A stretch of DNA of 30,031 nt from a virus (Duplodnaviria > Heunggongvirae > Uroviricota > Caudoviricetes). The position numbers and the translations under genes are program-made. This document shows, in pieces, positions 5,131 to 9,164 of this stretch. Location: IMG/VR virus record IMGVR_UViG_2648501437_000010, positions 1 through 30,031 of that record. The stretch is one strand, 5' to 3'. Position 1 is the stretch's first letter. Every line of letters starts with the position of its first letter. The notes beneath the pieces are model-generated. The model ran no database searches. It was given only the letters and a program-made list of their open reading frames with translations, and was not told the DNA's origin.

Positions 5131-5154
5131 CAAAAAACCCGCCGTAGCGGGTTT
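5131..5154 (-). terminator. rho-independent terminator ending the 5911-6330 / 5153-5926 operon
   Basis: On the minus strand: AAACCCGC-tacg-GCGGGTTT followed by TTTTTTG; GC-rich stem of 6-8 bp, 4-nt loop, U-tract. Overlaps the TAA stop at 5153-5155. Confidence 0.7.
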
Positions 5155-5926
5155 ATTGATTCATAGATCGTTTACTCAGAATGTTCACTATATGAGTACA
5201 AGCACCTGGGGTGAGATTGATTTTATTAGTCCCCCACTCTTCACGTCTTCGCATCTGGCCTCCGTCAGACTTACCGATATCCCACGGAATAAAACCACTT
5301 ACGCCACAGGCATCCTCACCCAATTCCTCTATAAAATTTTCGTTCTTCGTATCGTAAATTTCGACCAGTCCATGTTTGCGCATACTCACAGCCCAAAGAG
5401 TTGCGCCTTTTATCGTCTGTAACGTATCGCAAACCAAGTACTGATACTTATCTACGAGATAAAGGTAAGCAAAACTTGCGATGCCTAATCCCATATAATC
5501 AGCATGAGTAAAAACCCCTCTAATCTGCTTGGCGCTGACTTTTACTCCAGATTTATCCTTGATTGGAAACTCGCAGTAGGCCACGCGGAAGACTGTTTGG
5601 ACTGGCTGCCCCACATGCAACTTGTAGGATTCAATTTCTGCTCCTATCTCAAGAGGTGTGTAACCAGCACGTTTGAGTCGCTTAACTTCCTGCTCTTGGT
5701 AATCAGGATCACATGACTCAAGACACTCGCCAACAATACAGCGTTCATAGGCCGAATCAACAAGCTCGTATTCGGTAAATCGAATTAGATCGAAACCTCG
5801 GGAGATAAAATAGAACTCACCGAGAGCGATAATTCTCGTCGCTCTCGGCATTTCAGACAAGACCTTGCTGTAGTCTTCTATTTCAGGGATTAATCTGTTC
5901 GCCTGACCAATTAGAGATGGTGCCAT
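5153..5926 (-). CDS. hypothetical protein; weak GNAT-acetyltransferase-like motif
   Basis: 257 aa; segment HADYMGLGIASFAYLYL resembles GNAT motif A (h-P-x-Y-x-G-x-G-I-G/A). Start overlaps the upstream ORF by 16 nt. No other recognisable motif. Confidence 0.5.
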   Translation of the reverse strand: MAPSLIGQANRLIPEIEDYSKVLSEMPRATRIIALGEFYFISRGFDLIRFTEYELVDSAYERCIVGECLESCDPDYQEQEVKRLKRAGYTPLEIGAEIESYKLHVGQPVQTVFRVAYCEFPIKDKSGVKVSAKQIRGVFTHADYMGLGIASFAYLYLVDKYQYLVCDTLQTIKGATLWAVSMRKHGLVEIYDTKNENFIEELGEDACGVSGFIPWDIGKSDGGQMRRREEWGTNKINLTPGACTHIVNILSKRSMNQ

Positions 5927-6330
5927 GAAGTATTCTGTGCCGTTGATGGTTCCATATCATCGATTTTACAGAATTTCTTCATAAAAGACTCTACAACTTG
6001 TTTGATTCGTGAAGAAATATCACGATCTAAACACTTCAAGTCAGGATATTGTTCAGCAACATCTAAAACAAAAGAGGTTCGTTTACCGTTAGCGACAACC
6101 TCGGCCAACGGTTTAACCAGTGACGTAGAATTAGAGACCTTTTCGGCACGCGCCACATCGCTCTTAAAAGTGACGATGAAGTGCTGGCGGTTAGCTGATT
6201 CACGGCACAACATACGTCGCACTTCTACTGCGTCTTCACTGTTGTGAAAACGCATAGGAAAGCTGTCGATAACCGCAGTATTGGTGCGGATCGTCTGCAT
6301 AGAACGCGTATTGTCATGATAATTTAGCAT
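5911..6330 (-). CDS. hypothetical protein
   Basis: 139 aa; ATG at 6330 with AAGGTGGA RBS; preceded by a 209-bp structured non-coding spacer. Confidence 0.5.
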   Translation of the reverse strand: MLNYHDNTRSMQTIRTNTAVIDSFPMRFHNSEDAVEVRRMLCRESANRQHFIVTFKSDVARAEKVSNSTSLVKPLAEVVANGKRTSFVLDVAEQYPDLKCLDRDISSRIKQVVESFMKKFCKIDDMEPSTAQNTSWHHL

Positions 6331-6539: not shown

Positions 6540-6776
6540 TCATCGACTCAGCTCAGGTGCCCCCCACTCACACAGCCTTTCACCTATCGTATTGTGGATA
6601 AGCAACTGTCGCTCCGTTTCCTCAGTCATAAAATCCTCTCTACTCACATAGATAGGATTTGCAGCATCGCAGAATAGCACGCCTGGAGCCTGCGTCTTAA
6701 TCACGCACCCATTTATCAAACAGCTCGCGATGAACACCAGAGGCATCTTTTTGCCGCACTTCATTAACCGTTTCAT
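6540..6776 (-). CDS. outer-membrane spanin candidate (Rz1-like lipoprotein); start ambiguous (6785, 6776, 6764 or 6746)
   Basis: Reading frame offset from, and overlapping the 3' end of, the i-spanin gene. N-terminus MKRLMKCGKKMPLVFIAS-C has a basic n-region, hydrophobic core and a lipobox-like IAS|C. Confidence 0.45.
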   Translation of the reverse strand: MKRLMKCGKKMPLVFIASCLINGCVIKTQAPGVLFCDAANPIYVSREDFMTEETERQLLIHNTIGERLCEWGAPELSR

Positions 6777-6948
6777 TTTTGACATCCACTGTGCTTTGAA
6801 GTCGTTTTCTGTCTTCCTGTTTTGCCTTCTCTTCCATTGCTCGTCGCGCCGCATTTCCGCCCATCGTGTAAGCGCCGACCAGAACGAAAAGAACGGCAGC
6901 CAGCGTAATCAAAGCAACTTTTAGCTTTGTCATCAGGCTGCCTAGCAT
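6697..6948 (-). CDS. inner-membrane spanin candidate (Rz-like)
   Basis: 83 aa; N-terminal TM segment VALITLAAVLFVLVGAY followed by a charged, coiled-coil-like region; AAAGGGATGG RBS; a lipoprotein ORF begins inside its 3' part in another frame. Confidence 0.55.
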   Translation of the reverse strand: MLGSLMTKLKVALITLAAVLFVLVGAYTMGGNAARRAMEEKAKQEDRKRLQSTVDVKNETVNEVRQKDASGVHRELFDKWVRD

Positions 6949-6949
6949 A

Positions 6950-7642
6950 TTAGACCATCCCTTTCTGGTGTCTTCTTACCTGCGACCAGGCGATAAATCC
7001 AGCCACAACAATAGTGGCAATACCGAAGATGATGCGTACTGTATCCCCGCTAGAGATATGACCTTGTGCTTTATCCATAGCAGCGGAAACCTGCGGCATA
7101 ACATCGGCCAGCTGCGCCAGACCAATACCTGCTGTAACAGTTGCGCCTGCTGTTTCTTTAGTTACAGGAACAGCCTTCACGGTTTTCACCGGCTTAACGA
7201 CGCCAGCTCGACGCAGACCTTCCTCAATAACTTCTGCCGCATACCAGGTGTTCAGCGTTTTTAGCGGACCTCGCCCATTCTCATGGCGAATGATTGCCTC
7301 AACCAAAGGTCGAAGAATGTCGTAATCATGCAGATCGATAATCATGTCTGCGGTTACACCAACGGCTTTAGACACCTCATTAATGTAGGCGTCAGTGTTG
7401 TTTTCATTCGGCGGTGCCCAACGTTCAATAACTTCACGAATGGTATCGATACTTGAGCCGTCTTTTGCGCGACGCTTGTCGTGGTAGGTAATTAGAGTCA
7501 CCGCCAGTGCACGAATCCCCCAAACAGGGTCTTTAAACGTGCAAAAGCGCGGTTCGTCTGGATTCGCAACCAGACCTTGCCACGGTGATCCTTTATCAAG
7601 ATTACCGGGGTTATTATTACGAATGCCTCTCGGAGTCTTCAT
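6950..7642 (-). CDS. tail-anchored membrane protein (soluble N-terminal domain + C-terminal TM helix); in the slot where an endolysin would be expected
   Basis: ATG at 7642 with strong AGGAGA RBS (ACAGGAGATCAAGGATG); N-terminus MKTPRGIRNNNPGNL; Ala/Thr/Val-rich linker; C-terminal IIFGIATIVVAGFIAWSQV followed by RRHQK. No catalytic motif I can assign. Confidence 0.6.
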   Translation of the reverse strand: MKTPRGIRNNNPGNLDKGSPWQGLVANPDEPRFCTFKDPVWGIRALAVTLITYHDKRRAKDGSSIDTIREVIERWAPPNENNTDAYINEVSKAVGVTADMIIDLHDYDILRPLVEAIIRHENGRGPLKTLNTWYAAEVIEEGLRRAGVVKPVKTVKAVPVTKETAGATVTAGIGLAQLADVMPQVSAAMDKAQGHISSGDTVRIIFGIATIVVAGFIAWSQVRRHQKGMV

Positions 7643-7655
7643 CCTTGATCTCCTG

Positions 7656-7979
7656 TTATTGCAGTCCATTTTTTACGCCATACGCGGCTAACCCCAAAAG
7701 CAGTGCGGTAATAATGAACGACGTTATTTTAGAAACAATGCCGCCAAAGAACCCACTTGAGATGGAATCTAACCGGTTAAGGAGTTTGTCCAGGTTGGAG
7801 TGTTGAATACTATGTTGCGCCGGGGTCATATCACCAAAGTAGGTTTTCAGCTGATCGTTGACCTCCTGGCCAATTTCTTCACGTAGCTCTTTACCTAATT
7901 TGCCAACAACCTCCCGAGCAACGATCGCGGCAATACGCTCAACTTGCTCTGTTGTAACGCCCGCCATCTCGTTCGACAT
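7656..7979 (-). CDS. small tail-anchored membrane protein (holin-like or superinfection-exclusion candidate)
   Basis: ATG at 7979 preceded by GGAGGA; about 107 aa with a charged soluble N-terminal part and a single C-terminal TM segment (IITALLLGLAAYGV). Confidence 0.5.
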   Translation of the reverse strand: MSNEMAGVTTEQVERIAAIVAREVVGKLGKELREEIGQEVNDQLKTYFGDMTPAQHSIQHSNLDKLLNRLDSISSGFFGGIVSKITSFIITALLLGLAAYGVKNGLQ

Positions 7980-8045
7980 GTTTTCCTCCATGAAAAGTCA
8001 AATCGGGATGGCGGATTTATATCACATTTCACCCTTTTGTTATAG

Positions 8046-8061
8046 GTGTGTACTTACCTAT
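8046..8061 (-). promoter_or_regulatory. recurring 16-nt motif, site B (plus strand gtgtgTACTTACCTAT)
   Basis: Intergenic, about 70 nt upstream of the 7656-7979 gene start, same orientation as the other sites. Confidence 0.4.
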
Positions 8062-8294
8062 CATTCAGCATTGCAACGGACTGATGAGAAAGCACCTACT
8101 CCTACCCATCGCCAGTTATAGATGCTACCCGCTTTGTATAAGGTATAGTCGTTCACTTTTTTAACAGCATATATGGGTATGACTGTCTCCTGTCCACCAA
8201 TGATAGCTTCACCATAACATATAGGTGTCGGCAATTTCTGGCAGCCAGTAAGAGAGAGAACAACAGCTATTGTTAGAAATAATCTTTTCATCAT
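8061..8294 (-). CDS. small lipoprotein (Cor-like superinfection-exclusion candidate)
   Basis: 77 aa; signal peptide MMKRLFLTIAVVLSLTG-C with lipobox LTGC; located downstream of the tail-fibre genes, as cor is in phi80/N15-type phages. Confidence 0.5.
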   Translation of the reverse strand: MMKRLFLTIAVVLSLTGCQKLPTPICYGEAIIGGQETVIPIYAVKKVNDYTLYKAGSIYNWRWVGVGAFSSVRCNAE

Positions 8295-8301
8295 TTACTC
8301 A

Positions 8302-8910
8302 TCAGTTATACAGATTTCTATTTATTACCGGTACTCTGCCATTTACGCTAAAACTATGGCCGCCATTAAGTTGGTTTACGAATATCGAGCTAACAGTATT
8401 TCCATATGCCGCATATCCATAAACCATTGTCATGGCTCCGCCCGGTACTGGAACAGCGGACACATTCGCATATGTTGGGATTATCGCTGGAGGGTAATCA
8501 AAAACATGCCCTCCAGAGCTGTTCCACTCCGTATTATTAAGAAAGGTAAATGAAAGTGGGATATTTGCCGTATTATAGATTTCCTCCCCTTGTGCATTGA
8601 AAAAACTCATGCCCCAAGTTTCTTTTTTGGCTATACCTTTCGAAAATACGTATATCGTGGCACTAGAGTCGCTACCCTGACCTCCGAAACTGTAAATCAC
8701 CTGGTTGTTACGCACTATTCTGTTGGCTATTAATGAAACAGCTTTCGAATAGGCAACAAAAATAATCGGTGAACGATCTGGAGATATTTTGGTGTTAAAC
8801 TCTGTTCCGCCGGACAAAGAAACAACCTGCTTTCTCTGAAAAACGATAGGAGACAAAGAAGGAGACATCCAGACCTTCCCGTCAGATCGATATATCTTGC
8901 TTCCGTACAT
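8302..8910 (-). CDS. hypothetical protein (Gly/Ser/Asn-rich, beta-rich composition)
   Basis: 202 aa; ATG overlaps the stop of the upstream 84-aa ORF (TAATG); no signal peptide. Confidence 0.5.
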   Translation of the reverse strand: MYGSKIYRSDGKVWMSPSLSPIVFQRKQVVSLSGGTEFNTKISPDRSPIIFVAYSKAVSLIANRIVRNNQVIYSFGGQGSDSSATIYVFSKGIAKKETWGMSFFNAQGEEIYNTANIPLSFTFLNNTEWNSSGGHVFDYPPAIIPTYANVSAVPVPGGAMTMVYGYAAYGNTVSSIFVNQLNGGHSFSVNGRVPVINRNLYN

Positions 8911-9164
8911 TATTTTTGAAAAACCAATATGTTTAAATTACCACTAGCTCCAGACCACGAAATGGTATTTCCAGAAACCGTAAGACTTGTGTACTTTCCA
9001 TTGGTTACGTCCATTATGTAATAGTCGATTCCCAATCCCGCCTCAACCTCATATGTTCTACTTCCTGAACCAGAGGGAGTAAAATAATCGAGGTAATAAA
9101 CAGGGGCCAACGCATTGACCATCTCCTGTCTTGATGGCGACCAAACCTGTGCACCATAGCTCAT
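8910..9164 (-). CDS. hypothetical small protein
   Basis: 84 aa; ATG at 9164 with AAGGA RBS 7 nt upstream; a hairpin (9190-9212) sits immediately 5' of the RBS. Confidence 0.45.
   Translation of the reverse strand: MSYGAQVWSPSRQEMVNALAPVYYLDYFTPSGSGSRTYEVEAGLGIDYYIMDVTNGKYTSLTVSGNTISWSGASGNLNILVFQK

Follow-up and report, generated by a model that had tools for sequence, protein, structure and literature searches.

How would a phage lyse its host if its spanin genes are accompanied by neither a recognizable endolysin gene nor a canonical holin gene? This is how an earlier note, made by reading the letters of the DNA, had described a locus in a 30,031-nt stretch (hereafter, the window) that comprises positions 1 to 30,031 of the IMG/VR virus record IMGVR_UViG_2648501437_000010. 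The first 25 kb of the window are ~96% identical to Escherichia coli phage-plasmids, such as NZ_LR882992.1 (109 kb, non-mobilizable), and, judged from this similarity, the element is an SSU5-like E. coli phage-plasmid. Its segment 6540 to 7979 is very probably an SSU5-type late lysis cassette with a membrane-anchored endolysin of the kind found in Hafnia phage Enc34. On the minus strand, the cassette encodes, in this order, a 107-aa protein (here called p107), the 230-aa endolysin, an inner membrane spanin (i-spanin), and an overlapping outer membrane spanin (o-spanin). The statement that a canonical holin is lacking is thus a fair one, but the endolysin can be recognized from its sequence.

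The five open reading frames (ORFs) of this region, including the one for a Cor-like lipoprotein, are all present on the minus strand with the boundaries that the earlier note had given. Each of them matches a PHROG family, with E values from 1e-24 to 1e-88, and the cassette block is kept at 83 to 95% DNA identity in the Escherichia phages Cyrano, PhiR41_1, and CMS-2020a and in Salmonella phage SSU5. Because of these matches and the conservation of the block, the ORFs cannot be regarded as chance ones. The cassette genes are preceded by a tail module (tape measure, lambda-like tail tip genes, tail fiber, and fiber assembly genes) and followed by plasmid partition and replication genes. They are tightly spaced, with 13 nt between the p107 and endolysin genes and 1 nt between the stop of the endolysin gene and the start of the Rz-like gene, and no terminator-like site is predicted within the cassette.

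The 230-aa protein, to which no muralytic motif had been assigned, belongs to the endolysin family phrog_873 (E = 4.9e-88). A phmmer search of the PDB aligns its residues 3 to 151 with the Enc34 endolysin's catalytic domain (PDB ID 7Q47; E = 2.6e-54), and the fold search that the earlier note had suggested for the N-terminal domain leads to the same structure. The AlphaFold2 (AF2) model, built on 22 homologs, has predicted local distance difference test (pLDDT) scores of 87 to 97 for residues 31 to 150 and of 60 to 81 for the first 30 residues. With this model as the query, Foldseek returns 7Q47 as the sole strong structural match (E = 3e-16; template modeling score, 0.79; 59% identity). Searches of Pfam and NCBIfam find nothing above the cutoff for this protein; since neither database models the catalytic domain, it is understandable that the endolysin was missed in the earlier reading and that it carries the label “hypothetical protein” in RefSeq.

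In the alignment with the Enc34 enzyme, Trp75, Tyr86, and Glu121 correspond to Trp79, Tyr95, and Glu131, and all three are invariant in the 22 homologs, which are 55 to 89% identical. Superposition on the glycoside hydrolase (GH) family GH73 and GH23 enzymes has led to the proposal that Glu131 of the Enc34 protein, near which Trp79 and Tyr95 are located, is catalytic (PMC8943055). By analogy, Glu121 (codon 7280 to 7282) is the putative catalytic residue of the 230-aa protein; the roles assigned in that paper come from structural superposition rather than mutagenesis, and the offset of 1 between the numbering of the PDB chain and that of the paper was counted by hand. The start of the protein is preceded, 7 nt on its 5' side, by the Shine-Dalgarno sequence AGGAG (7650 to 7654); a longer, 239-aa reading from position 7669 has no such sequence. 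The N terminus, MKTPRGIRNNNPGN, is hydrophilic and does not form the weakly hydrophobic signal-anchor-release (SAR) domain that marks the N termini of SAR endolysins.

Experiments on two homologs indicate what this protein might do. The all-helical domain of the Enc34 enzyme, which the CDD lists under “virion protein” (PHA02564), lyses outer membrane-permeabilized cells of E. coli, Pseudomonas, and Hafnia; at full length, the Enc34 endolysin is toxic (PMC8943055). M4Lys of Salmonella phage BSPM4 is 55% identical to the 230-aa protein over residues 2 to 228, so that the homology takes in the membrane region as well. The purified M4Lys domain has N-acetylglucosaminidase activity; full-length M4Lys on its own lyses E. 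coli, azide does not block this lysis, the transmembrane domain (TMD) is required for it, and loss of the last 13 residues abolishes it (PMC7143992). The 230-aa protein is, by sequence and predicted fold, an endolysin of the Enc34/M4Lys class, with a predicted peptidoglycan glycosidase domain at the N terminus, and its lytic activity is predicted from these homologs. This class is already described, with a crystal structure, demonstrated muralytic activity, TMD-dependent lysis, and three experimental papers. Of the two explanations that the earlier note had offered, the one in which lysis is non-canonical and the lytic enzyme is tethered to the membrane therefore fits, the protein being a close homolog of the tested Enc34 endolysin and of the TMD-dependent M4Lys.

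The same catalytic domain forms the N terminus of the K1F-type gp16 internal virion proteins, of tape measure and tail proteins, and of the E1004 core protein (PDB ID 9VVP). It is known as “virion protein V/P5,” and some plasmids have the 230-aa protein annotated as “structural protein P5.” These occurrences would fit a primarily virion-associated lysin that acts in ejection. Here, however, the domain is part of a free-standing, membrane-anchored protein of 230 aa, to which no virion protein module is attached, and its gene lies after the tail genes, between those for the putative holin and the spanins. Since, in addition, the full-length homolog M4Lys lyses cells from within, a primary role in the virion is highly improbable.

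The C-terminal part of the endolysin consists, in this order, of a PVTKET motif, a Gly/Ala/Thr-rich helix (approximately residues 165 to 192), the loop DKAQGHISSGD, a TMD (residues 204 to 222; nt 6977 to 7033), and the basic tail SQVRRHQKGMV. The TMD is the single strongly hydrophobic segment of the protein (Kyte-Doolittle value, 2.07), which bears out the earlier observation that both this protein and p107 have their only strongly hydrophobic segment at the extreme C terminus. The Gly/Ala/Thr-rich helix is weakly hydrophobic, with a Kyte-Doolittle value of ~1.0 for residues 167 to 185 by hand count and no window of at least 1.2 by script. It is the only part of the endolysin with a SAR-like composition, close to the C terminus, and in this it resembles the SAR domains described in PMC9239132. 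The module contains nine residues that are invariant in the 22 homologs (P159, T161, E163, G174, Q177, P183, S198, G207, and Q221) and is, by this pattern of conservation, more than a plain linker and anchor. The confidence of the AF2 model is low across the module. With its C-terminal membrane domain and basic tail and with no signal or SAR segment at the N terminus, the protein has the layout that defines the Enc34/M4Lys class.

Across the endolysin family, the C-terminal tail has on average 2.6 Lys or Arg residues and 0.4 Asp or Glu residues. By the positive-inside rule, this bias indicates that the C terminus should be cytoplasmic. If the first helix also spans the membrane, the enzyme would stay in the cytoplasm. 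Such an arrangement, with both termini inside and two TMDs, has been predicted for Siskin (PMC6498227), whereas an N-out orientation has been predicted for M4Lys (PMC7143992) and a Sec-dependent “C-terminal SAR” has been proposed for the enzyme of Acidovorax phage AP1 (PMC8879335).

The membrane module might not be limited to this class. Its profile aligns end to end with the last ~70 residues of LysAP, the AP1 endolysin (L025:829-1512), with a score of 20.8 bits and an hhalign probability of 85%, compared to 15.4 bits for the best of 1,000 shuffles. The catalytic domain of LysAP is an unrelated GH24-type lysozyme, and its C-terminal TMD is needed for lysis (PMC8879335). The occurrence of one module in an Enc34-type endolysin and in a GH24-type enzyme suggests that it may be a portable membrane domain. 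A tblastn search with the AP1 module returns AP1 alone. A relationship of the module to the small two-TMD proteins encoded after M15 endolysins in distant p107 cassettes, which would make it a fused holin, found no support (hmmsearch E > 0.8; hhalign probability of at most ~1%).

The two genes that complete the cassette form an overlapped, two-component i-spanin/o-spanin pair, as the earlier note had proposed and as the PHROG matches, hydropathy, and lipobox confirm; processing of the lipoprotein is predicted. The i-spanin consists of an N-terminal TMD (approximately residues 8 to 28 by hydropathy) and a charged periplasmic helix, and its counterparts in SSU5 and Cyrano are annotated as spanins. 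The o-spanin gene is in a different frame from the i-spanin gene; it begins within the 3' end of the latter, overlaps it by 80 nt, and ends beyond it. Its product has the lipobox IASC with the lipidation site at Cys19 (codon 6720 to 6722). Searches of Pfam and NCBIfam reveal nothing above the cutoff for either protein. In their census of spanins, Kongari et al. list SSU5 among phages with the overlapped architecture and place its o-spanin in the Chi family, together with that of Enc34, with the SSU5 i-spanin as a singleton (PMC6139136).

Table 1. Features of the lysis cassette and the adjacent cor gene (positions in the window)
Feature	Position	Strand	Basis
p107 Shine-Dalgarno sequence GGAGG	7985..7989	minus	read from the sequence, 5 nt upstream of the ATG at 7979
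p107, 107 aa, first cassette gene, putative holin or lysis regulator	7656..7979	minus	phrog_5093
Endolysin, Enc34/M4Lys type, 230 aa	6950..7642	minus	PDB ID 7Q47, Foldseek, identity to M4Lys, phrog_873
Endolysin catalytic domain, residues 1 to 150, all-helical lysozyme-like fold (CDD PHA02564)	7193..7642	minus	alignment to 7Q47
Endolysin C-terminal membrane module, residues 151 to 230	6950..7192	minus	hydropathy, invariant residues, tail charge
i-spanin (Rz-like), 83 aa	6697..6948	minus	phrog_1026, Rz-like spanin (E = 5.7e-25)
o-spanin (Rz1-like) lipoprotein, 78 aa	6540..6776	minus	phrog_1275 (E = 6.4e-26)
Cor superinfection exclusion lipoprotein, neighbor of the cassette	8061..8294	minus	NCBIfam NF047972 (lamb_exclu_cor)

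The earlier note had also considered that the Cor-like lipoprotein, p107, and the 230-aa protein form a superinfection exclusion or membrane defense cluster, with the true endolysin and holin located elsewhere. Cor is indeed a true exclusion lipoprotein: it passes the equivalog model NF047972 (E = 5.8e-23; 80.7 bits, compared to a cutoff of 31), matches phrog_1119 (E = 2.3e-30), and has the lipobox LTGC with Cys18. Its gene lies only 81 nt upstream of the cassette, and the two genes beyond it have annotations that refer to the membrane and the outer membrane. However, p107-family genes adjoin endolysin genes in the lysis cassettes of unrelated phages that have no cor, and the 230-aa protein is a close homolog of enzymatically proven endolysins. 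PADLOC returns no matches for any of the seven proteins searched, and the annotation of SSU5 lists neither a further endolysin nor a further holin within the first 100 kb of its 103-kb genome. These two results leave the defense cluster unsupported, and it is very hard to credit. Contrary to the earlier note, cor does not stand in the place of a lysis gene. It is a separate exclusion gene outside the lysis cassette, at the end of the block of tail fiber and moron genes, in the same position as in SSU5.

Between the fiber assembly gene and cor (8302 to 9164), the window encodes a 202-aa protein assigned to phrog_425 (“membrane associated protein”) and an 84-aa one assigned to phrog_557 (“outer membrane protein”). 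Pfam, NCBIfam, and PADLOC return no match for either protein, no TMD or signal is obvious in them, and their PHROG names look doubtful.

The remaining cassette protein, p107, matches phrog_5093, which is annotated as being of unknown function (E = 8e-69), and no Pfam or NCBIfam family. In the AF2 model (pLDDT of 91), it consists of two long helices, residues 10 to 48 and 53 to 103, separated by a break at G49 to T52; the second helix continues straight into the C-terminal TMD (approximately residues 77 to 102). The best 19-residue Kyte-Doolittle window, at residues 81 to 99, has a value of 2.02 and belongs to the only hydrophobic segment of the protein, after which there is a tail of 8 residues with one Lys. 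A Foldseek search of BFVD with the p107 model finds nothing better than E = 1.5. Of the partners of the studied endolysin relatives, two were compared with p107: there is no similarity to BSPM4 ORF_37, the chi-type partner, by BLASTP and hhalign, or to HolAP of AP1. The hhalign probability for the Mu releasin gp25 is 0.3%. The orthologs in SSU5 and Cyrano are labeled “putative holin” by virtue of their position alone, and no experimental work on p107 was found in the literature.

A dual-start (holin/antiholin) reading of the p107 gene was rejected. An in-frame ATG is present at 7991, 12 nt upstream of the start, and would add MEEN to the protein, but it has no Shine-Dalgarno sequence, its nucleotides belong to the Shine-Dalgarno region that serves the real start, and the homologs start with MSNEM; a dual-start motif is thus probably absent. 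The tetrapeptide ISSG is found shortly before the TMD in both p107 (residues 73 to 76) and the endolysin (residues 196 to 199). Its SSG part is kept within each SSU5-like group and not in the wider p107 family, and it may be either a coincidence or a shared contact.

A word-based search finds p107 only in SSU5-like elements, with at least 64% identity, whereas an exhaustive profile search retrieves 60 cluster representatives at E ≤ 0.001. The family alignment took in 44 of these, with lengths of 94 to 143 aa; all 44 match phrog_5093, and none matches a Pfam holin family or DUF2730 (PF10805). They share an acidic N-terminal helix rich in Ala, Glu, Lys, and Arg, a Gly...His-x3-His motif ~20 residues before the C-terminal TMD, and a tail of ~10 residues. 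In p107 numbering, G49, H56, and H60 are invariant and R62 and D71 nearly so. When distant members were used in tblastn searches of isolated phage genomes, only SSU5-like phages, or nothing, were found.

The genomic neighborhoods of the distant members are more telling. Eight independent contexts were examined (L011/L012 and L015/L016, with the same representative in each pair, were counted once each), and all eight are phage-like. In four of them (L010, L012, L014, and L015/L016), the next gene encodes a soluble Peptidase_M15_3 endolysin and either overlaps or abuts the p107-like gene; where the contig continues, genes follow for a small one- or two-TMD protein and for an Rz-like protein. In L024, the next gene encodes a soluble endolysin with GH108 and PG_binding_3 domains, and the only TM proteins nearby are of 58 and 71 aa. 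In L013, a 62-aa two-TMD protein comes next, and a SAR-lysozyme-like N terminus is found one gene further on. The contexts L009 and L023 are too short for a judgment. Closer to the window, a Providencia phage-plasmid encodes a 53%-identical p107 homolog directly upstream of an Enc34-type endolysin. Among the plasmids in PLSDB, p107 is found in 747 and the full-length endolysin in 748.

The p107 family therefore occurs beside four endolysin classes, with the Enc34-type, M15_3, and GH108 enzymes adjacent and the SAR-lysozyme-like one a gene away. A protein that heads cassettes with several types of endolysin appears to be a lysis cassette protein independent of the endolysin type, and such independence classically marks a holin or a regulator associated with one. 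Accordingly, p107 could represent either a class of tail-anchored holins or a releasin-like general timing controller, and the two roles, a hole-forming trigger and a regulator, divide the likelihood roughly evenly. That phrog_5093 is an uncharacterized, widespread family of phage lysis proteins is a tentative view, which we hold with slightly less than even confidence.

In the same Providencia phage-plasmid (L005:3231-4225), two extra genes, for proteins of 103 and 227 aa with no TMD, lie between those for the endolysin and the i-spanin. They show no BLASTP similarity to the window genes at 8302 to 8910 and 8910 to 9164.

The Enc34-type endolysins, in turn, have various partners. In the studied relatives, including AP1, the upstream protein (Enc34 ORF38, BSPM4 ORF_37, or AP1 HolAP) has its TMD at the N terminus. 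The Enc34-type endolysin of a Pasteurella prophage is preceded by an 85-aa protein that has no TMD. In two other prophages (L021 and L022, 1411 to 3447), a C-terminally anchored Enc34-type endolysin is encoded downstream of a Phage_holin_3_3 holin, so that an ordinary holin, too, can accompany this endolysin class; L021, but not L022, encodes a LysC-like lipoprotein between the two. In an Alcaligenaceae prophage (L020:2205-2504), the start of an Enc34-type endolysin gene is overlapped by 4 nt by a gene whose 99-aa product has a C-terminal TMD and contains a GD...H-x3-H motif. The two His residues of this product are placed by hhalign on the His pair of the p107 family, without significance; the protein may be a remote relative of p107 or a convergent form.

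From these data, the following sequence of events can be proposed for the cassette. By inference from the homologs, the endolysin would accumulate on the inner membrane through its C-terminal module and would reach or attack the peptidoglycan only past a threshold or after de-energization of the membrane. The p107 protein would set or tune the timing, either triggering lysis like a pinholin or regulating the membrane module of the endolysin, and the spanin pair would then remove the outer membrane. Like a typical holin, p107 is a small membrane protein, with one TMD, encoded beside the endolysin, 13 nt upstream.

Several points weigh against this proposal. The function of this cassette is argued by analogy, from experiments on homologs. 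The p107 protein belongs to no holin family described in Pfam or NCBIfam, and it has neither a charged C-terminal domain nor a supported dual start, which are hallmarks of holins. Many distant p107 cassettes hold a second small TM protein, possibly the true holin. The Enc34-type endolysin is promiscuous, with p107, the chi-type protein, and the canonical Phage_holin_3_3 among its upstream partners. The M4Lys partner ORF_37 is dispensable upon overexpression and slightly delayed lysis (PMC7143992). Finally, the three papers on this class disagree as to whether the catalytic domain starts out in the cytoplasm or in the periplasm (PMC6498227, PMC7143992, and PMC8879335).

Some of these points suit a different division of labor, in which p107 forms no holes, the endolysin module itself provides access to the wall, and p107 delays or licenses lysis in the manner of an antiholin or of the Mu releasin; the helical domain, which carries the invariant His pair, would be the part that acts, from the cytoplasmic face of the membrane. 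M4Lys by itself suffices to lyse E. coli, with ORF_37 only slowing the process, but this independence of a holin was seen only under strong overexpression, and the AP1 partner accelerated lysis (PMC8879335). The occurrence of Enc34-type endolysins with at least three unrelated upstream partners (p107, the chi-type protein, and Phage_holin_3_3) and, in Pasteurella, with an upstream gene product that has no TMD is consistent with a regulatory p107, as are the second small proteins with one or two TMDs, possible holins, often found in distant p107 cassettes and the near absence of an extramembrane C terminus in p107. On the other hand, p107 has no similarity to DUF2730 or Mu gp25, and its TMD is at the end opposite that of the N-terminal, N-out/C-in TMD of releasins. 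In L024, moreover, a p107-like protein precedes a soluble GH108 endolysin, which needs a real hole, and the only TM proteins nearby are the two very small ones. This regulator-only role for p107 is a genuine possibility, although clearly below an even one. The assignment of the segment to an SSU5-type lysis cassette holds with p107 in either role: the proposed mechanism provides for both.

The system of Enc34 is among the closest characterized ones. The catalytic domains are ~59% identical and share the three active-site residues, both endolysins have an N-terminal catalytic domain and a C-terminal membrane domain, both genes are found between those for a small membrane protein and overlapped spanins, and the o-spanins belong to the same (Chi) family. 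The differences are that Enc34 is a 60-kb chi-like virulent siphovirus, as opposed to a 110-kb phage-plasmid, that its upstream partner is unrelated to p107 and has the TMD at the N terminus rather than the C terminus, and that the i-spanin of the window is not of the Chi family. The functional reference is M4Lys, whose 55% identity extends throughout, including the membrane module and the basic tail; its partner ORF_37 (phrog_7686) shows no similarity to p107. LysAP/HolAP of AP1 provides a further parallel, in that the C-terminal TMD of the endolysin is needed for both lysis and localization (PMC8879335), but the catalytic domain there is of the unrelated GH24 type.

Compared to the lambda S-R-Rz-Rz1 cassette, the one in the window has the same gene order, tight coupling, and three steps, directed at the inner membrane, the wall, and the outer membrane. 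However, lambda R is soluble, S is a dual-start holin with three TMDs, and Rz1 is embedded within Rz rather than overlapped. The Mu releasin gp25 (DUF2730) is, like p107, a small, acidic, helical, membrane-tethered protein encoded in the lysis region, and its target is a membrane-anchored endolysin, although it is not itself a holin (PMC9239132). It is a possible functional analog of p107, but there is no sequence or profile similarity between the two, the TMD of gp25 is N-terminal, and the Mu endolysin has an N-terminal SAR domain.

The genes SSU5 gp26 to gp30 and Cyrano CYRAN_22 to CYRAN_25 are direct orthologs, with 83 to 94% DNA identity. The annotations putative holin, endolysin, Rz, and Rz1 have already been given to the SSU5 and Cyrano orthologs, by position and PHROG matches alone, so that this kind of cassette is a known one. 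No experiments on the cassette genes of either phage were found in the literature. What the comparison adds are leads. The endolysin class appears to be wider than the “chi-like and related” clade of PMC8943055, being standard in SSU5-type phage-plasmids and present in assorted prophages; it is paired here with a different, uncharacterized partner family, which serves other endolysin classes as well; and an unrelated lysozyme may have the same membrane module.

The cassette is carried by ~750 sequenced plasmids (~1% of PLSDB) from Klebsiella, E. coli, Enterobacter, and Salmonella, and among the plasmid matches listed, its genes always bear one of the labels “hypothetical protein,” “membrane protein,” and “structural protein P5.” A model of the Pfam or NCBIfam type for the catalytic domain would correct the annotation of this clinically common group of phage-plasmids. 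How an endolysin with only a C-terminal anchor gains access to the wall is still debated in the three papers on this class, and the SSU5-like elements offer a second genetically tractable system, where an altogether different protein is the partner of the same enzyme. The p107 family, which has an invariant His pair and is associated with several endolysin classes, is a cheap, concrete target in the search for a new holin topology or a new kind of lysis regulator.

Two further observations concern the surroundings of the cassette. Between the o-spanin gene and a ParA-like gene (5153 to 6330), the window has two conserved genes with no function assigned, which encode proteins of 257 aa (phrog_3307) and 139 aa (phrog_2594). 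Cyrano carries a KacT-type toxin-antitoxin pair in their place, and the site is therefore variable. Outside the window, SSU5_101 (SSU5 NC_018843.1, 86898 to 87596) carries the annotation “lysozyme inhibitor LprI family protein,” a curious companion for a lysozyme-like endolysin.

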